Positions 3,615 to 51,699 of a DNA stretch of 64,000 bases are shown here, in pieces. The notes under the pieces were generated by a model. It made no database searches and was not told the DNA's origin. It saw only the letters and a list, made by a program, of their open reading frames with translations. The stretch is from positions 23,246,345 to 23,310,344 of the forward strand of contig NC_134028.1 of NCBI RefSeq assembly GCF_964204645.1, in the 5' to 3' direction. This DNA comes from Tubulanus polymorphus. Lineage: Eukaryota > Animalia > Nemertea. The position numbers were made by a program, and so were the translations under genes. The number at the start of each line of letters is the position of its first letter. Position 1 is the first letter of the stretch.

Positions 3615-3764
3615 CTGGTGGATGTTGTGGAATATCTAAAGACTCATCTTTCCAATCGCTCGAAGATACATCATCATCGCTGTCACTCCACTCATATTCA
3701 GAATGTTGCGTATCATAATCTGGTAATGTACATGTTATATGGGGTGCTGAAAGACCTTTCTCCC
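3615..3764 (-). CDS. Cav3: Cav3 exon, acidic distal I-II linker (GEKGLSAPHITCTLPDYDTQHSEYEWSDSDDDVSSSDWKDESLDIPQHPP), 150 nt
   Basis: Pyrimidine tract plus ctctag| acceptor, CCAG|gtcggt donor, phase 1/1. YEWSDSD resembles the acidic YEFTQD-type segment before Cav3 domain II. Confidence 0.8.
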
Positions 3765-4184: not shown

Positions 4185-4953
4185 CTGCATTTTTAGTGCC
4201 GTCCACATTTGGATTTAACTTATTCATATCATTGTAATCCATATTCAGCAGTGAGTTAGGAGCAGCGAGCGTATTTTTAGCACCATGGAGACTAGTAGTG
4301 TCGGGCACGTTTAGTTGTCGCGAACTGCCCGTGCCGTTTAATGACGATGATAGCGGAACTAGATGATTAGGGGAAGACTGTTGTGATTTGATCACGGCGT
4401 CCATAGGGGGCGCTAGCGTATTATCCGATACAAACGCGCTACTGTGAAGAGATTCTGATGATGGGTTTAGACTGTTGTTGCTCGGCAACATAAGGTGATT
4501 CGGCCGCCGCGGCGACGAAACAGGGTCGATATCGGATACCTCGGGACTCGCCCTCGGAGCCTGTTGACCCGGATCCATGTAGGCCCTCTGAGTTATGAAT
4601 GTACACGCCATGCGATGCGCGTGTTGTAACTGCACGGATTGTTTCGGTGTTTTCCAGCGTCCGCGCTTGCGACGCAACGATATCGCTTTTTCCGGTTTCA
4701 CTTTGCACTGACGTTTTCCCTGCGCGCGCTTGAACGTTCGCACAATTCGTCGTTTGAGTCTGCGCGCCAGATGAGCAAGGTATTTGAGTATTTCGTCGTA
4801 ACAGCCGCCCGGCTCCGAGTTACTCGCCAGAGTGCTGCTCGATTGGAAGCGTTTTCGTTCCTGCATCATGCGTTCGGTCTCGCGCTTTTTCGTTTCGGAA
4901 AACTGCGTCGCGATTACAACTAGACAGAGGTTGATCATAAAAAATGAACCGAT
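4185..4953 (-). CDS. Cav3: Cav3 exon, IS6, gating brake and proximal I-II linker ([23 protein letters not shown]...APRASPE...DGTKNA), 769 nt
   Basis: tttcag| acceptor at 4954. Gating-brake helix-loop-helix ([21 protein letters not shown]); APRASPE at 4560-4540. The 3' end uses the phase-compatible GCAG|gtataa donor and is less certain than the start. Confidence 0.9.
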
Positions 4954-8028: not shown

Positions 8029-8121
8029 CACTATCAACAATACAAAGTAAATCCAATCCCAAAATGTATGGGCATCTTGAACATAATACATGATGTCTAC
8101 CCAGCCTTCAAGGCTGATCAC
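8029..8121 (-). CDS. Cav3: Cav3 domain I pore exon, copy B with canonical Glu: [31 protein letters not shown], 93 nt
   Basis: tatttacag| acceptor, GTG|gtaagt donor, phase 0/0. Filter codon GAA at 8109-8107. Confidence 0.96.
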
Positions 8122-8186
8122 CTGTAAATATAGAGAAGCAGGGAAACGGGTTATCGGGGACGTGAAGCTAAAGAAAATGAACTTAC

Positions 8187-8279
8187 CACAATTAACAATA
8201 CAAAATAGATCCAATCCCAAAATGAATGAGCATCTTGAACATAATACATGATGTCTACCCAGCCTCCGAGGCTTATTAC
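8187..8279 (-). CDS. Cav3: Cav3 domain I pore exon, copy A with Gly at the filter position: [31 protein letters not shown], 93 nt
   Basis: ttgcatttcag| acceptor, GTG|gtaagt donor, phase 0/0, no stop or indel. Filter codon GGA at 8267-8265. Not shown in frame in the ORF track. Confidence 0.85.
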
Positions 8280-8532
8280 CTGAAATGCAATAACGAACAT
8301 GTACAAAATAAAAACGAGCCTTTTTGTTGTTTTTTTTTCGCCGTGATTATCGCAGACGAGATGCTTCTATTTAACGCATGTCTTGATACCGCTGTATACA
8401 GCTAGTAAGAATTGATATGACCCGCAGGGATCGCGTAGAGTGACTGTAATAAATCTAATTTGTGGTATAAAAACCATAGCGTATATCGATATAACATACG
8501 CTAAACGCGTACGAACTGTATAACCTTTTGCG

Positions 8533-8823
8533 AGTAACGGGTTAGCGACGGACAAAAAAGATTAAAATAGGATTAATAGAAGAATTCAAAAATTCGTCGT
8601 ATGAGTGTAAACCCTAATGATAGACGTGTGGGGGTAAACCTGGGAAGCCGGGTTTCGAAACCTAACCTAACTAAACCTGCCCTAACTTAAGAAACCGAAG
8701 ATAACCACTCGGCCAAACGCTGATCTACTGCCGAGCATGAACAGTTACTCGTGACGTCATATCGGGCGTGGAGAATTGTGGGAAGTATAGGAATGTAGTA
8801 CGTTGTGAATACTACGTATTTTC
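8533..8823 (+). mobile_element. Non-autonomous interspersed repeat, Helentron/HINE-like, copy 1
   Basis: Aligns in reverse complement to 61057-61322 (GAAACCGAAGATAACC, CAGTTACTCGTGACGTCATA, GAATTGTGGGAAGT). Has a CCTAACCT tract and a short terminal stem-loop. Family assignment is inference. Confidence 0.75.
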
Positions 8824-11800
8824 GACACGGTCAAAATGTGTTTTAGAATAATTTTGCATATGATACGCAGCTTTTTTGTTGAGCGCATCGTTTAGCCACA
8901 TATGCGGTGGACTCACGTGACAGAGTCTCCGCACGTGACAGAGTCTCGCGATACCATCAGTTTCGAATCCCTGCCGGAGGACGATGTTCCACGTAGAATA
9001 CGTTGTCGAACCTGCTACGTAATTTTGAAACATGTGTACACTGTGGTTAACTTAAGTTCCTTAGCCATCAGCCAATTCGGAGCAACATCAAACAAACCGT
9101 AGTCATTTAAAACCTTCTCTAATATCACGAGTGAATGATACATAAATTTCTTTATCAAATATGTCAAAGCCCCATCAAATTATTAGCAAAAATTACGCAG
9201 AACGTAATTGAGACTTGAGAACTTTGTCGGCGCGCCATAGATGCCATAATCGAATAGTGGCACGCGAATATCACATAATTTCATCGTCGATACTCGTTGT
9301 GGCTGTAACTACAAAAATACCGGGATCAAGTTACCTAGCAACCGCAGGTAAATAAACCTGTTATACGGTTCACAGAAAGCGTTGGCATAATGATCTAAAA
9401 ACTCAGAAAAACAGGCTTCGGATAAATGAAAAAGTCTATGTATAAAACGCTTTTGAATTGTTTGGTCGAAATTGAAAACCAACAGCAGCTGAAACAGAAA
9501 TTCAAGTTTAACTTTTTATAGAAATCGGGGTCAGGGCATAGTGACCGAGCACTTTACCTGGTGGTATTACATCAGGTCATTAACAAGAATATAGATTGAT
9601 CTGATCTGACTCAGTAAAGGAACAAGCCTTCATAGTCAGATCATAGGCTCAGTAATGGAGCCTTGGCCCGATCAAAATCGGCTCAGTAGGGTAAAAAGAC
9701 ATCTTGGCAGGACCCGACTTGGGTAAGGTAACAAAACGTCGTGGACTGCACCTAGATAAACTCTTACTAAGGTAACAGAACTTCGAAGGGGAAGAGCAGC
9801 TAGTAAATAAGGTAAAAGGTAGGAATCGACCAGCAGCGTGGTAGATATTCAACTGCAAATGAAGCTGAAATGTCAAATGTATACACCCATACTGTGAGTA
9901 AATTGAATATCCATTATTTGGTTGAGTTCACGCTGAAAAACGACGCGGCCACAAATAGATCAGATAACGCCAAGTCTGGTGGATCGCTTATTACTCTTCA
10001 TCACAGAACTAGCGAAAGAAATGCGGCGCCAATAATCCTGCGCAAATAATATTTCCAACGAATTATTGGCAATCGCAGGTTTCATAAAGATGATCGGATG
10101 ATGGAAAAGAAATGGCAATAAACACCCCACATATCCTTTACTCGTATGTGTATATATATGTACATCAATCAATGGCTGTGTGGGTAGGTCGGTTCGGGGA
10201 GCCTACAGCGATATCCAAAATCCAGCATCTCTCTAGATTGATATCCTTATTGGAAAAAAGCAAAATGGAAATTGACGGGAAACGACGAATCGATTTGTTT
10301 ATTTTTGCAGAAACGAAAACACGTTTTGCCTAAAGAAATTCCAGGGTGCTAGGAAACTATACTAACTGCCCATTCCTGACAAAAGGATGAAAGTCAATTT
10401 TTTCGAAATTCAGATTTTGATCGACCATTACTGGTGCAACTACTGGTGCATTCCGTTCGGTGCAATCCTCACATCGGTATCTCTAACCGTGCTTAGACCC
10501 TAGTATGCAGTACGGTTAAAGCACGATATTTAGAGTGAATAAACATCTATGTATTTGAACAGATTGGCGCATGTATACGGGCTGATAATCGCAACTAATC
10601 TCATTGCTTTCATGTCGCTGACCATCAATGCGACGTTAATGCATCCGATTAAGCTCGGCTTCAGAACGGCAGACGTGTTCGCAGGATACATTCAATCAGA
10701 CCCAATAGAAAACTCTACAGCAATGAATCCGCTGCCGCTCGCTGCAATTCATATTGATATTGATGCATCAGTCGCAATGATGGTATTATATACACGTGAA
10801 TATGATACATTTCGGCGGGCAATTACGCCATGATGGGGTCATCAAGAACCGGCATAACAGACCGCGGTCTGAGTAATAATCCAGCGCTTAACTCGGCTGA
10901 TTATGTCGTCAGTATTTCAAATCCTCTCCAAATTCCCGGTGAAATGGCTGTGTCTGATGACCAATCTATTCACGCAGAAGCTAGTTAGCACAAAGTGCAT
11001 CTAAGCTCAGGGGCATGTGACCCGTATCTTCTTCAGACACACGGGTTTCAGGTTTTAAATATGATAATCTTATTCACGACAGAATATCAGTTCACAGTCT
11101 TGAAGTCTTGAATTCTAAGATGATTACGTTGTTAAAAAATCAATTCGATTTCCGATTTCTGATCTAAGCTCCCTGGTTTGTACCTACTGCTGGCTATGCT
11201 GGCTTTGATAGAGGATTCTACTCGTGGCAAGTGAGGATCCACCAGGTGTCGCTAGCACTAATATTAGTTGGTGATCTGCAGGGTTTAGATATCATTAATA
11301 ATTGATCGGTCTAGCTTTATTCAGCAAAGCATCACACAAAGCAGTGAAAAAAACCCATAATGGGACACGAGTTGAGTTCCTGTGAAAGATTATTTAATCA
11401 AGCAATCGACGCGTGAGATTTTGTTATCATGCCGACGTGTTTGCGACGAATGATTTTTCAGCCATCATTTCTCATTATGAAACCGCTGACAACCCGTACA
11501 AATCAGTTGCCCGCGACAACGACGACGGTGTTTACGGGGAGTTGTATAATGTATCGGCGGCGGCGACGCCGACATCGCAGTGAACGAAACGATACCGACA
11601 CGTCGACATCGTCACGAAATGCAAAAGACAAGCCGACAGACGGTAACGCGATGGAGGCGCACGGCGACGACGAGAAATATCGCGTCCATAATCGCTACAG
11701 GAAATGGTCTATGAATACGCGACAGATCGGTGACAGTCGCTGGAAGCACGACGCCCCTATTTTCAGCCAACCAAATTACGATATTGTCACGCACCCAGGA

Positions 11801-14664
11801 TATGCCTCAACCTTGACGCGTTCAATAGACGCGAGCGACTGAAATCCGACGAAGCCGGCGAGAAAATTGAATACTGATTCTTACAGAATTTTCCCAATAG
11901 TCTCGCTTATTCGCGACGCAAGATGACATTAACACCCTGTGATGCTATTAAAAAAGAAGCTCATACGTATTTATCTAAAAGCAATTTTTTCCATTTACGG
12001 TCAAAATTACGTTTAATATTAGGAAGTGAAGCAGATACCGCTTAGTTTTGCTCACTCATCTGAAGGCAATAAACAATGGCATAAAGGAAGTTATAATCGA
12101 GAGCGCGATGTTAACGCCGTTCGCGACCGAGAGACATTAAATCATCCGACTGTCCACTGTCCATATCCCATAAAGCTTCTTAACAGCTTCTAAAGAGCTT
12201 AACTGAATCAGCTTTAACCCTGGCGAACTGACGAACTGATGTATAAAATGAGGTGAAGGGCATCGGCTATATGAATATGCGCTAAAGCCTGGATGTCGGG
12301 AACGTCGGATGAAGCTAGATAGAAACAAAACTGTAAAGATTTTTAAGAAACTGGTTTTCAAAGTTCATTCAATTGTTCATGAGAGTTTTAGATGTGTCTC
12401 GTTGACCTGGTGTCAAACGGTTTGAACCGTGAAAACCGACGGTACTTTGTAGGGTTACCAGATTTTAGTTTAAGTATGAATCGTTCTGATACTTCTTAAT
12501 CGGATACTTCTCAAGACAGAAGCATCACGGTGACAATGACCATCTTAGTAGAATTCGTCCACTAATCGTAGATCTTATACATAACAGGAAATCTCATTCA
12601 TATTTCCGTAGTTCTATAACAAACAGCAATCACTCAGGATATGTAATCTACACATATTCTGCATGACTGCTTCATAAATATCCCGGCTATTCTTTTCCTT
12701 CGGATAGAAAAAGACCTCTCATGCACTCTCCATCCGCTAACATAATGATAGCCGACTGAGCAAATAAACTTTAAGTGTGTCTGCTATGTAGTATAGCGAC
12801 TCAGTCGCAGACATTATCGATTACGCCGTTTGAGAATCGAGCTGTAAAATAAGTTCATTTCTTGACATCATGTGCTACGGGACTAGTAACTTCTAGTCGT
12901 AGTCTGACACAATATCGATTTGCTCATCAAACTCTGAACGATCATCAATACCCGAGTGAGGTGCTGGTAGGTCTATACTCGAGTCTTACCAGTCAGACAG
13001 ATTTCATCATTGCAAGTTGAAAAAGAGCGCAATTTTATGCGTGGCATGTTACATTATACCAGATTTTCGGACACGTTTTGGAAGCCGTTTGATTTTATTT
13101 GGGGAAATTTAGGGGTTGATACCCCTGCCTCCCCATTGAGGTTGGACTTGTCCCCTCTCGGAAATTGCAACGACAAAGGAGCACCCGCTTGCGACCTGTT
13201 CGGCTTGACTGCTCTCCTCCTTTTCTTTATTGGAGCTCGCCTCCCAAATCTCCTAGATCCGCAGTCCCTGTGATTTTGTTCAATCATTTATATATGCATT
13301 AGTTTGTTAGTACAGTAAGCGTTTATATGTTTTGCGTTACGCCAGGTATTTGATTAATGATAAAAAATCAATGAAATCACGTTTTATGCGTCTACGCCAA
13401 CATTCTTGTTGCCTGGGAAATAGATTGTGTAATATCGCGGTTGGCTCTTTCAGCTGATATGCAATATCGAAATCTGTTACCAGCTCTGTACTTACTACAG
13501 CGTTGCGGTTACTTACTACGCAACACAAAGCAAGATGCACATTTCTCACAAGTTTAAAGATATAGTTTGGCTTTGAGCAAGTGAAAAATGGCTTTCACAA
13601 AGCAGAATCCAAAGAAGTCTTAGAATGAGCCAAGAGGGCTCCAATAGAATTTGGCATAGTTCTACAAATAGGAAAAGTTATGACAAAAACTGTTACGTGT
13701 AGTCTGTGGATCTTGAGAGACAAATTGATGATGGAATAGAGGATTCCTATTTTCCATCGAGTGGGCGATCCCCTGCAATATTCGGCCCGTCATTATCGAC
13801 ATATTTGTACTGATACCACCCTCCTTTCTAAAGATTTTATTGGTCGTGTGTGGCGAAAACCAAATCAATGCGTAGTTAAGATGCTGGCCTAACATGTCGT
13901 TAGCAGGATTTCCCATGGATTTAAGCGATTATGAACTTGAATTCTCGAATTTCTTATTTCAAAAGCCGCATGCAGGATTTTGGTTGGTCTGAGCGCTGGT
14001 CATGGGGTGGATCCGGAGGCAAGTTCAAGTGTCAACATTTGGGACCTGTAAGAACACACGTAAAGCCTATCGGATATTCAGTCTTCATTACGCCGGAATC
14101 AACGAGACGTAAAACTTGGAAAGATCGATTTCGCTGGGAGAGATTTCTCCAAGTCATAACTCGAAAAGATTCAATTACAGGAAACTGAGAAATAAATAAC
14201 CGCAACGCATATGTCGTAGCCGGCTCAATCAGGGAACGTTATCTGTGTAAATTATGAATAGTGAATTACCAGAATACAGACAGAAGCCGATTTGTTGTCT
14301 CAGAGCTAACAGCTTCTAGACATTTCAACGATTAATCATTTTTATCGATCTGCCGACGAAAATATGACGACGGGCCGCCTAAAAATCAATATGAGATCTA
14401 CGAGAATTGACGAATGAAATAAAATTCGCTACGAGAAATGATGATGGACTCCGCCGATTCCACCAGGAAATGGGCGTCTGAACTACGGGTAATGTTTAGA
14501 ATGAATTCATGAATGACAATTGTCATTTGCCAAATACGCCTACGCTATCGGCAGTGTGGTCTTGGCTACGCATGTTATGTCTCTTTCCAAATGTGATAAC
14601 AACATTCTTGAGATTATTATCAAAACACGGCGAGTCTTCTGCGATGACTGTTTACTCATAAGCT

Positions 14665-14825
14665 GGCTCATTCTGGTGTTTATAGCAAATCTACATCAAG
14701 ACCATTCGGATCTCATTCTAGTTCTATAGCCAATCCAGTCTAACATTGGTTCTATAGCCAATCTAACATTTTAACCTAAGCTCATTTTAGTTCTTTAGCC
14801 AATCTATTAACTGAAGACCATTTCG
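14665..14825. repeat. Degenerate minisatellite, about 4 units with core GTTCTATAGCCAATC
   Basis: Recurring variants of CTCATTCTAGTTCTATAGCCAATCTA. Confidence 0.65.
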
Positions 14826-15928
14826 AACTCTCAAGCCGTCGCAAGGCCGACCTACGCCCGCCTATTAAGCCATGACCGAGCAACTCTTGGCCCAAGATTA
14901 TGTTTTATGTTGAGATTAGATTGGAGAAGTGATTATGATTGACGGTTTACTTTTAGCTCTTCCTTCATTCATTTTCGGTGAGATGTTTTTTAATCAATGA
15001 CAGTTAACGCTTCGTTGCAGGAGAGAATAACCGAATTAGTCAGTTAACTGTCTCCCCACTGCGTGGTAGCGGTGTTAGCCCGTCGTCACACTGCCATTCA
15101 CACTTTATATTCCAGACTCCGTCAACGCGGTTATCAGGATTCGGTGCAATCTCTGAAACCTTACTCGAAATGAACGACCTTTCCACTGGAGCAGTCATTA
15201 TCTCTCACGACATTCATCTCGAGTATATACTACAGTGAGAATTCCGCGCGAGTCGGCGAGTATTGTGTAACAGATACAGACAGTGTAAACAAAGATGAGA
15301 CGAGTATCAATAGCAGTTTCAACGGCGGTCGTATATCAGCTAAGGCGTCATGTTTCGTCTGAATTTTCTGCATGTCTCTCTCCGAGGGGTGAATTCGTAA
15401 TCCTGTATAATCTATGACATATGTGAAACCAAAAATAAAATTCTCTCCGCGGTGAAACTTCAAAACCATTTGGGTCTGTGTAAAATGAAGACATATGCAA
15501 ATCTAATGAAGCAATGGCACATCCGCTGCACAACTGGAAGTGTGTATATCATGCGGGTTTAACAAGAAACCCAGTTTGCTGGTTAAAAATAATGAACTTA
15601 ATACTGTAAGGTAGATGATTAGAATAGTCCCGTTATAGAAGTTTACATGATAAAATCTTGAAGATCTATTGAAACTAGATAACGACATTTCGGCTGCTGA
15701 CAAACAGCAATAATCAGCTGAAATGACCATCAGAAGCTACATTGTGGTTTCACTTTGACACGTTGCATGAAATTCTATTGTTAGACTTTTTATTTATCTA
15801 TACAGTCACACGAAGCCATATGGGATGCTTTATTTGACTAGAGTTTAATTCTAACCCGAAACCCGAAAAGGTGACACCTTATTATCATCAGTGGCCATAT
15901 TAGTAAAACAATAGCCATTTTGACTTAC

Positions 15929-16247
15929 CTGGAATATAGCGACCCATGCTAATCCTATGTTATCGAATGAGATTGCGCCTTGGAAGGGATTTTTATCTCC
16001 GGGTTGACAAGTCGTATAATACTGATTCCAATTGATACACGATGTTGAGTTTCTAATTGAAGTATTGTTCACATAATTATTGCTATACGCATCTACGGTA
16101 TCGTTACACAGATTGCCGTGCACATTTCGAAGTTCTTTGATCCCCGAGCAATGTCTCATACCCGAATCCTTGTGCATGCTACAGATAAAATCGTGTTGAT
16201 CGCTGCCGTGTTCGATCACCGGTACGTAATACGGGTTCAGATAAAAC
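15929..16247 (-). CDS. Cav3: Cav3 exon, domain I extracellular turret and P1 helix (FYLNPYY...SFDNIGLAWVAIFQ), 319 nt
   Basis: ttttttctag| acceptor, CAG|gtaagt donor. Contains the CINWNQYYTTC and NPFQGAISFDNIG motifs. Confidence 0.97.
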
Positions 16248-17515
16248 CTAGAAAAAATCGAAGACAAATTTCTTATCTTATTTCATATCTTATGGCATAT
16301 TATAATACATCATACATATCTTAATGAACCCATACAAGAACGAACTTCGAATGTCGGAGAAATTTTTGCGAACTAAATGAAATCGAATGTCAGATAGTCG
16401 AAATGACTATATTATGGTCCGGAAATAACGAACCACGTCGCTGTAGTTTAGACTATAGTTCCAAGATGGCCGACACTGTGAAATGCATTTTGACCACTAT
16501 AGTCGACAAATTAGAAATCTGAAGTTCGCCAGGGCTGGTTACATCATGGGGCACAAGTTAATCCGACTGATTTGGTATCGAGTTAGAATATTTGATAGTT
16601 TTTATTGTTCTTACAAGAGACATATATTTAGAATCTTAACGATGACTGCGAAATGAAATCGATGCTATTCTAGGGGTAGGACAATTCAGGCTACTACAAA
16701 TCTAGAATCTCCCGTATACACTCAAACACTGGAGAATATGTTAAAAAGGTTAAACCCGACGGCTCACAAATTAAAAAGACTAAAAAATGAAATTCATCTA
16801 TATCGAGAATTAGAAATTAAAGGACATGACCATCGTTTAGGTTTTAATCTCGCCATCGTAGATACCACGATCCAATAGTAGGACTTATAGTAGCAATTCG
16901 AAGCGAAATATGACGTACGGGTCAACTGAGACGTCATACGTTTCTGACACTTACAGAGACAGCCACACCCGAAAATGGTCTCTAGCAAAACGTTGTGTCT
17001 TCTGATTCTAATTCGTGATATATGAATTTCGTTTTTAAAATCTTGTAAATTTTTTCAGAATGGGTTTTGATCTTATTTCTTTAAATGCTTTAATTCAAGC
17101 AGGGTTCAGCTATCGAAAACCTCGAAAAATACATCATATTATTAGCACACTCTCTAGATTCCGGAGCATTTTTTTAGTTATGTTAAGAGTTAATGCTCAG
17201 AAATAAATCCGGAAAATTATTTGCGGCTTAGGAAATAGTTGCTGCAAGTAGCACTTCGGAAAACACGGTCAGAAAAAAAGAATTATCATTATTTCATAGC
17301 AGGTTATCACCCATGCCGTCACCACCTGCCAACAACCATAGTAGCGAGGATACAGGACATGCAAAATGTAGTGATTTGCAAATCCTGATAATCGTGAATG
17401 CGTTTTAGTCAGTTGATTGCTGAAAAGCTGCTGAGGTATTTCAAAAACAAGACATTCGCATTATTAAGTCAGGGATGAAATTTTCCGGGGTATGAAAGTC
17501 TCCGCCCAATGCAGC

Positions 17516-17516
<1 letters not shown>

Positions 17517-17570
<54 letters not shown>
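17517..17570. repeat. (CAG)18 microsatellite, read as (CUG)18 in the pre-mRNA
   Basis: 54 nt of uninterrupted CAG. Confidence 0.97.
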
Positions 17571-17576
<6 letters not shown>

Positions 17577-19576: not shown

Positions 19577-19748
19577 CCGGGGTATGAAAAATTCTGCCTA
19601 TTATCCATAAAACAGCGTTGACGCAACAGGCCGGCCCAGAGCTGTACGCCGACGATACCAAAAATGAAGAAAACAAAGAAACACAACAGAAGCACATTTC
19701 CCAACATCGGTAACGTGTCCAATAACAGCATCACCAATATACGCATAC
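19577..19748 (-). CDS. Cav3: Cav3 exon, IS4-S5 linker and IS5 ([18 protein letters not shown]...QNFSYPG), 172 nt
   Basis: ttttcag| acceptor, |gtaagt donor, highly conserved Cav3 sequence. Confidence 0.97.
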
Positions 19749-29074: not shown

Positions 29075-29172
29075 TCGGTATTCGATTGATCGCCCTCAAA
29101 GGTCTCAGCACGCGAATCGTTCTTATCGCTGACAAACTCAAGTTTTCGGTATCGATCGTATATTCCACCGTG
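29075..29172 (-). CDS. Cav3: Cav3 exon, IS3-S4 loop and IS4 voltage sensor ([33 protein letters not shown]), 98 nt
   Basis: atttacag| acceptor, |gtaagt donor, Arg at every third position, phases fit both neighbours. Confidence 0.97.
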
Positions 29173-46232: not shown

Positions 46233-46478
46233 CCCGCTATGACAATGAACATATCCAGTCGATTCCACGTCTCGGCGAGGTACCGGTCCTTGCCAAACAC
46301 GCCCATCGCGCAACACTTGGCAAACATTTCAAACGCGAAAAACGCAAAAATGAAATGGTCGAATCCTTCGAGGACCTGGCATCGGGTGTTGTCGCAGATT
46401 TCATCTTCGCACGGTCGGTACATACCGAGAGTAACGCAGTTCAATAGGATAACAGCCATGCTCAGGCGCTCGAACCAT
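46233..46478 (-). CDS. Cav3: Cav3 exon, IS1-IS3 ([19 protein letters not shown]...[12 protein letters not shown]), 246 nt
   Basis: Translation matches Cav3 IS1-S3. Acceptor is ...TCCTTAACTTCGTTGTAC|ATGG (AC-ending). Donor GG|gtaagt at 46232. Confidence 0.95.
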
Positions 46479-46496
46479 GTACAACGAAGTTAAGGA
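46479..46496 (-). promoter_or_regulatory. U12-type (minor spliceosome) branch point and AC 3' splice site
   Basis: TCCTTAAC at 46496-46489, then AC at 46480-46479 directly before the (P)WFE codons. No AG acceptor at this boundary. Confidence 0.9.
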
Positions 46497-50828: not shown

Positions 50829-51535
50829 TCTTTATTTCCATTTTGTGACACCGCTATCGATTGCAGTCAACCTTTCGAACTTACAAACTCAGTAGTGCAG
50901 TGGTAAGCATGTAATCAGGGAATGATGACGTGTTGATAGTGAATGCAGCATTTGGCAATCAGTTCCCACAATATTCAATATTGACTGGTCACACAACACC
51001 TGACAGGTAACCACCCTGAACACTAAACTAGTCCCATACCGTTCACAATTCCTAGCAGTGTCAGTCTCAGTGGTCCAGCATGTTGGATGTGCCAGATCAA
51101 GTCACTTTTCACTTTTCATTCCTTTTCACACAGAATTACATATTGACCAAAATACTTTTTTTAAAGTTTGATTTCAGTCTTTTTTACATCAGAGTACTGT
51201 CCTTTCATTGAACTATTGTTTTCATTGGTGCGTTCAAAAGAACACTGCTGAAATCATGAAAACCTACGAACCCGAGGCTAAGAAATGAAATCAGCTCCTA
51301 ATCAGCTGGGTCGTTTTCTAAATCGCAATAAAATTTGTAATAAACTAATTTCTATGGCTGCTGGGTCTGTTATGGTTCGCTTGATCATGATTTTAATAAG
51401 GTAATGTACAGTGTAGCTTTTCAAAGGGTCAACTTTTATGCTCAGCAGAAATGAAAAACAAGGTATCAATTTTCTTTTTAGCCTAAATAGAATTTTTGGG
51501 AAAGGTGACTTTTCATTTCAATTCCAATGTGAATT

Positions 51536-51699
<164 letters not shown>

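Follow-up and report, generated by a model that had tools for sequence, protein, structure and literature searches.

The Cav3 gene in the window

The window, the whole 64-kb stretch of Tubulanus polymorphus DNA that was analysed, carries on its minus strand a gene that, judged by its sequence, is a Cav3 T-type channel gene. Its mapped part, from S1 of domain I to the turret of domain II, comprises twelve exons, all of them on the minus strand. The domain I S1-S2, S3-S4 and S5 exons are located at 46233-46478, 29075-29172 and 19577-19748, respectively, followed by an exon that encodes the domain I turret and pore helix 1 and ends in phase 0 (15929-16247). Downstream of the two pore exons described below, an exon starting in phase 0 (4185-4953) encodes the rest of IS6, the gating-brake region and the I-II linker. 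The remaining exons are a I-II linker exon (3615-3764), whose placement relies on splice signals and frame only, three exons for S1-S5 of domain II (2066-1945, 1856-1705 and 1496-1311, spanning 1311-2066) and the domain II turret exon (184-322). Position 184, where this last exon ends, is just short of the exon for the domain II filter, so the filter exons of domains II-IV lie outside the window, as the initial annotation had stated.

The window exons tile named invertebrate Cav3 proteins in order. One of the two pore exons (copy B, see below) scored 37.9-40.5 bits with Cav3.1-3.3 versus 28.6 bits or less with Cav1/Cav2, and the gating-brake region after IS6 (4938-4645) is 77.6% identical to Capitella Cav3 over 98 amino acids. 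Overall the window protein is closest to Capitella Cav3 (69-70% identity). In the protein tree it falls outside the arthropod clade (98/95 and 100/99), although a topology test did not reject a forced arthropod grouping (p-AU 0.19), and also outside a group made up of Capitella, Helobdella and the gene model P0125 (91/93), which it adjoins (73/85); a spiralian source is therefore probable. A short tree of the flanking exons placed the window with one mollusc and one flatworm instead (SH-aLRT 90). A protein atlas search with the window protein returned weak chordate clusters only.

Several other features of the locus were recorded. The domain I S1-S2 exon is preceded by an AC acceptor with the branch motif TCCTTAAC (intron end at 46479-46496, minus strand), the signature of a U12-type AT-AC intron; a matching donor was not found upstream in the window. 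Nav and Cav genes are known to contain introns of this type (PMC3557258). Three cysteines of the domain II turret exon are arranged as in exon 12a (CxxC...C; PMC7382465), which is the Na+-permeable form in snails, and an exon 12b may follow beyond the window. The intron upstream of the pore exons contains short interspersed repeats, seen as very high depth in the DNA runs, at 11208-11255, 8621-9031 and 13553-15196. Simple repeats were also noted: (CTG)n at about 17515-17572, and a long stretch of (AT)n at about 51520-51690.

Two copies of the domain I pore exon

Two 93-nt copies of this exon, 65 nt apart, are present in the gene. Copy A (8187-8279, minus strand) comes first in the direction of transcription and has Gly at the filter position (codon GGA, 8267-8265); copy B (8029-8121, minus strand) has the canonical Glu of the domain I ring position (codon GAA, 8109-8107). 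Each copy encodes the end of pore helix 1, the filter, pore helix 2 and the start of S6, is in phase 0, and is bordered by a CAG acceptor and a GTAAGT donor. The copies differ at ten nucleotides. Eight of the differences are synonymous and two cause replacements: GGA/GAA at codon 5 (Gly in copy A, Glu in copy B) and TCA/ACA at codon 19 (Ser in copy A, Thr in copy B). In an alignment with human Cav3.1, codon 5 coincides with the filter Glu of its domain I. The coordinates, exon length, phase, splice signals and translations, the tally of differences and the identity of the site had all been given in the initial annotation, and every one of them was reproduced here.

The repeat unit comprises 105 nt, that is, the exon and its splice signals, with a spacing of 158 nt and 90% identity, and ends at the splice signals. 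The flanking introns had been said not to align; their ungapped agreement, splice consensus included, proved to be only 27-45%. The 64-kb window does not contain a third copy: the next-best score was 32, compared to 166-170. The intron between the copies (8122-8186, minus strand) is a GT-AG intron of 65 nt and is the shortest among the 11 introns mapped.

Tandem homologous exons of equal length and phase, with intact splice sites, are the marks of a mutually exclusive exon pair. Copies A and B are tandem, homologous, and equal in length and phase; they encode the same structural part, and their splice sites are intact.

Selection on the copies

Between the copies dS was 0.48-0.72 and dN 0.03, giving a dN/dS of 0.04-0.06 that derives from only ten changes. 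Neutral evolution of copy A since the duplication had a P value of 0.0006-0.011, depending on which of three transition weights and of two ways of assigning the replacements was used. These values point to purifying selection on the two intact copies, although in part of the exon the same pattern could be produced by gene conversion. The initial annotation had favoured purifying selection over a dead duplicate, and the dN/dS of about 0.05, next to decayed copies of the adjoining intron, bears it out.

Copy A might instead be a silent or rarely used duplicate, in which Gly is the first mutation of decay and which has stayed intact through its youth and through conversion from copy B. The excess of eight synonymous over one or two replacement changes speaks against this, as do the perfect splice sites of both copies beside intron copies that no longer align. 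Since relatives commonly have Ser at codon 19, Thr is a change of copy B, and copy A has only one replacement of its own, at the filter codon; this one codon of 31 specifies the very residue that is neutral in 54 distinct related exons among the loci listed (see below). What can be said for a silent duplicate is that the copies are sisters with 90% identity, and that they share an identical tract of 36 nt (8230-8265, matching 8072-8107, minus strand), which begins directly after the Gly/Glu base. The tract reached borderline significance in a permutation analysis (P 0.052) and is a possible trace of gene conversion. Taken with the observations on RNA and on relatives reported in the next sections, we consider a silent copy A unlikely.

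Independent sequencing runs

Three runs bearing the same species label (X15-X17) cover the introns and exons of the locus alike, so these runs are DNA. The initial annotation had proposed checking the GGA codon in raw genomic reads, and the codon is there in contigs of two runs from two samples: unchanged in an X15 contig covering 8236-8652, whose two differences from the window are at 8464 and 8518, and in an X16 contig covering 8230-8433, which has no differences. Elsewhere X15 differs from the window at dozens of positions, well under 1% of sites, so it likely represents another individual or haplotype.

An error of the assembly, either a joining of two haplotypes into a false tandem or a wrong base in the GGA codon, is most improbable. 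The two copies are 10% apart and have unaligned flanks, whereas X15 and the window differ by well under 1%; in addition, 0.90 of the sampled words are present in X15, with the introns on both sides at even depth, and GGA recurs in the second sample. The one observation in favour of an error is that none of the listed contigs of X15-X17 spans both copies. The contigs of X15 break at the shared 36-nt tract, and the depth over the middle is 44.9 compared to 28.8 in the flanking contig.

In X16 one contig joins 8071 to 8230 and skips 158 nt, exactly one repeat unit. The join would leave a single hybrid exon with Gly, and 8072-8209 is not covered by any other contig of X16 or X17 (one sample, with very uneven cover). 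The skip is either a short-cut taken by the assembler through the shared tract or a deletion allele. If it were an allele, the locus could be in transit to a Gly-only state, with unequal crossing-over deleting one repeat unit and the hybrid Gly exon segregating in the species. That such an end state exists is shown by the Ala-only genes described below. Nevertheless, the join crosses precisely the 36-nt identical tract, the cover of X16 and X17 is very uneven, and X15 has the raised middle depth given above; we regard a segregating deletion as very unlikely, and it would also be compatible with the explanation that we prefer, either/or use of the two copies.

Run X18, the only run of the same species guessed to be RNA, yielded 0 contigs at the locus. 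This fits a silent copy A, but does not prove absence of the transcript.

Glu and Ala exons in related genes

Related proteins were collected with three word-based searches and one profile-free full scan. Among the 280 proteins, which include the two of the window, the domain I filter residue was Glu in 233 and Ala in 30; six were read-through ORFs with a Glu copy followed by an Ala copy, three had two Glu-type matches, one had Gly and seven were unmatched. The queries had been picked to find such forms, so these counts are not frequencies. The single Gly protein is the window's own. Two double hits were rejected as probable assembly or annotation artefacts: in P0008 (Zophobas) about 240 residues are repeated exactly, and in P0006 (Ephemera) the two Glu copies are identical and the end of the spacer is unlike an acceptor.

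Metagenome contigs were scanned with a pattern that left the filter codon open and required Val three codons further on, and at least 120 loci were obtained. Of the 120 listed, 87 passed a filter for an intron-bounded exon: 49 with a single Ala exon, 20 with a single Glu exon and 18 with Glu then Ala. Among the 33 dropped, six had no domain I exon and others were distant or lacked introns; the rest were L074 and L046, the latter a genuine Glu locus lost to the donor filter. Mis-assembly is suspected in L074, whose Ala copies overlap, and in L065, where the second copy is truncated, and neither is counted in the 17 intact tandem pairs among the loci listed. In all 17 the Glu copy precedes the Ala copy; the copies are 69-80% identical and the introns between them are 78-149 nt long. 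The six read-through ORFs, which belong to four clusters, have the same order, with inferred introns of 42-81 nt.

The loci listed contain 85 distinct exons, 54 with Ala and 31 with Glu, and none with Gly. The absence of Gly here and in the collected proteins other than the window's own counts in favour of a silent copy A. On the other side, the same swap occurs elsewhere, in Glu/Ala pairs and Ala-only genes, which makes a dead duplicate much less likely. The Ala codons of the 54 exons are GCC (23), GCG (16), GCA (10) and GCT (5). Pooled pS of the Ala exons listed was 0.79 compared to a pN of 0.058, in a set with many close kin whose pairs are not independent. Position +4 is Asn in 54/54 Ala exons and Asp in 30/31 Glu exons among the loci listed.

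Eight loci were checked that have both flanking exons and one pore exon between them. Five have Ala only (L004, L005, L006, L015, L061) and three Glu only (L002, L046, L078), and a decayed second copy was found in none of the eight. With only an Ala exon between both flanks, a neutral filter is the sole option in the five former loci. Ala was also found in the full-length P0125, a gene model of 1916 aa on a 514-kb contig, which lacks the domain I Glu and whose ring reads Ala, Glu, Asp, Asp. Its best solved matches are Cav3.1-3.3, with Cav3.1 first, it is the protein that groups with Capitella and Helobdella (91/93), and its domain II turret resembles Capitella exon 12b. Domains II-IV read E, D, D in P0125 and in 5/5 named relatives checked.

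The related Glu/Ala genes are likely to come from annelid worms; in the short tree of flanking exons the Ala and pair loci are placed, weakly, with the annelids. At the domain I filter, Glu is the residue of the named proteins of Capitella and Helobdella. Spliced Gly or Ala sequence was not seen among the loci or proteins.

Different exon types occur under one dataset prefix (L015, L064, L068; L063, L070, L105), which suggests paralogues in one host, although a dataset may hold several animals. The occurrence of Glu-only, Ala-only and pair loci under one prefix (within L004-L120) points to an expanded Cav3 family in the hosts; invertebrates normally have one Cav3 gene (PMC9694082).

In 15 loci (L003, L014, L030, L047, L050, L054, L056, L064, L065, L066, L071, L076, L082, L088, L105) the intron between the copies contains, before the acceptor of the Ala exon, a conserved TTTCGTGA and behind it a few GTGAC-like repeats in a short array. 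The motif and the repeats are likely to be a splicing control element. L007, L049, L115 and the window lack this element.

Three further observations concern the collected sequences. In three Ala loci (L006, L045, L070) the upstream exon has SFDDIGHAW in pore helix 1 where the others have SFDNIGLAW. The +1 residue of the domain I filter is Ser (or Asn, Ala) instead of Gly in flatworm, scallop and some rotifer-like sequences, including P0023, P0104, P0124 and L046. P0101, a Cav3 fragment filed under Enterococcus faecium, probably stems from animal DNA that contaminated the bacterial assembly.

Origin of the window's pair

The pair of the window does not fit the Glu/Ala type. The relatives' pairs are old, have Glu first and Ala second, carry Asn at +4 and are about 73% identical, whereas in the window the neutral copy comes first, the neutral residue is Gly, +4 is Asp, and the copies are 89% identical sisters. 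In an exon tree built without the filter codon copies A and B were sisters (95), in an alignment of 90 columns that left many forks open. The simplest reading of these differences is that the window pair arose by a separate, younger duplication and one A-to-G change. An old pair homogenised by conversion would also need a reversal of the order, and separate duplication is therefore the simpler alternative.

A wider scheme can be drawn from these data: the domain I Glu would have been neutralised at least twice in animals, by a Gly exon in the lineage of the window and by an Ala exon in an annelid-like lineage, after which some gene duplicates would have fixed Glu, some Ala, and others would have retained the two exons. 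Channels with AEDD or GEDD rings would then form a widespread class that is low-threshold, poorly Ca2+-selective and splice-switchable. We find the arguments for and against this scheme evenly balanced.

Proposed use of the two copies

We think it probable that transcripts include one copy or the other, that the Glu isoform is a normal channel, and that the Gly isoform binds Ca2+ more weakly and passes more monovalent current. Copies A and B would form a candidate mutually exclusive pair, of which a transcript takes either one and not both. With the Gly or the Glu copy the reading frame comprises 815 codons and has no stop. It is also open with both copies (846 codons) or neither (784), so no frameshift enforces the choice of copy. 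We infer either/or use because inclusion of both copies would double the pore loop and half a helix, and omission of both would delete them. Channel architecture is such that two pore exons in one domain, or none, would wreck the pore.

Exclusion would be at least partly steric, the distance from donor to branch point being too short for splicing between the copies. The 65-nt intron contains a branch-point-like ATAAC (a motif match only), with its A at 8151, 36 nt from the donor. In human genes 50 nt between donor and branch point was given as the limit for steric exclusion (PMC5740500), so the distance in the window is below the approximately 50-nt limit, which, deriving from human data, may fail in an animal with short introns. 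In some Glu/Ala pairs the intron, as deduced from the read-through ORFs, would measure no more than 42-45 nt. The splice sites of both window copies are of the U2 type.

Base pairing between RNA elements gained no support as the excluding mechanism. Docking/selector pairings better than those of shuffled controls were not found: the best joint duplexes had energies of -25.4 and -26.1 kcal/mol, inside the shuffled ranges of -24.7 to -27.4 and -21.0 to -33.9, respectively, and the fold had a z-score of 0.49 versus shuffles.

Predicted effect on the selectivity filter

Domains II-IV of the window's channel would read E-D-D, as in every full-length relative checked. Inclusion of copy A would remove one of the four ring carboxylates and thereby weaken Ca2+ binding. 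The resulting ring of three acids and one small neutral residue would have the make-up of the non-selective Nav2 rings DEEA and DEEG. The Gly isoform is expected to carry a mixed current with a larger monovalent share.

This prediction draws on mutagenesis of Cav1.2 and Cav3 in print. In Cav1.2, single Glu-to-Ala changes in the ring weaken the Ca2+ block of Li+ current 10-50-fold (PMC2233694, citing Ellinor 1995). In Cav3.1 the narrowest constriction of the pore is made by E354, which is the Glu of domain I, together with the Asp of domain III (PMC7382465). When one outer-pore Asp was neutralised, Na+ current rose from 2.3-fold to 8.6-fold in the snail Cav3 channel and from 1.3-fold to 6.5-fold in the human one (PMC9694082). 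T-type channels with an engineered EEEE ring became more Na+ permeable (PMC4436565), which means that Cav3 selectivity does not simply follow the ring. A measurement on a Cav3 channel with a domain I Glu-to-Gly or Glu-to-Ala change was not found in the literature searched.

It is also conceivable, with a probability that we rate as low, that copy A is spliced in but yields a channel with hardly any current or none, or one whose main differences concern gating, trafficking or block by protons or metals. The splice choice would then turn the T-current down or reshape it, leaving the ion unchanged. The two consecutive Gly residues at the filter turn may loosen the narrowest point, and Cav3 filter mutants have defied prediction from charge count (PMC4436565). 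Against such a channel stand the Ala-only genes, which have intact flanks and are saturated at synonymous sites, so that a channel with a neutral residue in the filter seems to work, the natural occurrence of Ala and Gly in Nav2 rings (PMC6259924), and the finding that Cav1.2 with an Ala substitution still conducts (PMC2233694).

Relation to known filter switches

The nearest precedent for either/or use of the two copies is NALCN, where exons 15a/15b (EEEE/EKEE) and 31a/31b (EEEE/EEKE) are mutually exclusive pore exons (PMC3557258). As in NALCN, the duplicated exon of the window lies in tandem and carries one filter residue and the start of S6 (PMC3557258). The NALCN pairs arose more than once, and one form was lost in some lineages (PMC3557258). 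The pair of the window differs from them in channel family, in affecting domain I rather than II or III, and in exchanging Glu for a small neutral residue rather than Lys. It differs also in order: the Glu copy is upstream in the NALCN pairs, as in the Glu/Ala pairs, whereas in the window the upstream copy is the non-Glu one. The window pair would work like the NALCN switch, but does not belong to that system.

A second comparison is with the turret exons 12a/12b of protostome Cav3, which belong to the same gene, are used in an either/or manner and tune Na+ versus Ca2+ permeation (PMC9694082, PMC7382465, PMC4436565). These exons spare the EEDD ring (also PMC5379919); their influence is exerted on the +1 Asp by way of the domain II loop, whereas the window pair changes the domain I ring residue itself. 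In the second Cav3 of cnidarians a pore carboxylate is lost in a separate gene, with Asn replacing the domain II +1 Asp (PMC9694082, PMC10120453). That gene resembles the Ala-only loci, but the change is at the +1 position rather than in the ring and there is no exon pair. The Nav2 rings DEEA and DEEG combine three acids with Ala or Gly, and these channels are described as calcium- or non-selective (PMC6259924); they belong to another family, have their neutral residue in domain IV and lack a +1 Asp in domain II. The likeness is one of make-up only.

Three reviews give EEDD as the invariable Cav3 ring of all animals known so far (PMC10120453, PMC4436565, PMC6259924). A GEDD or AEDD T-type channel was not found in the literature searched. 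Nor was a domain I exception found in the accessible part of the literature on Cav3, filters, splicing and annelids, most subscription papers and supplements lying beyond reach; to this extent the view of the initial annotation, that no such Cav3 report was known, holds. The supplement of PMC7382465 gave no hits for filter motifs, a weak blank, since its sequences are letter-spaced, and the accessible text of PMC7992859 does not mention Cav3. What would be new is filter swapping of the NALCN style in Cav3, the kind of switch being known from another family.

In the sequences described here the EEDD rule is broken at the narrowest residue of the pore, and in many natural genes under purifying selection rather than in a single aberrant genome. 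If the scheme of repeated neutralisation is true, AEDD and GEDD channels form a class that has been unrecognised until now, with a filter make-up like that of Nav2 and combinable with exons 12a/12b. Ring mutants behave unexpectedly, and an isoform pair that differs in Glu/Gly and Ser/Thr would be a natural experiment on the part played by the domain I carboxylate in T-type Ca2+ selectivity. Either/or use of the two copies would change how low-threshold currents in worms are read, and would add a case of convergent filter swapping beside NALCN.
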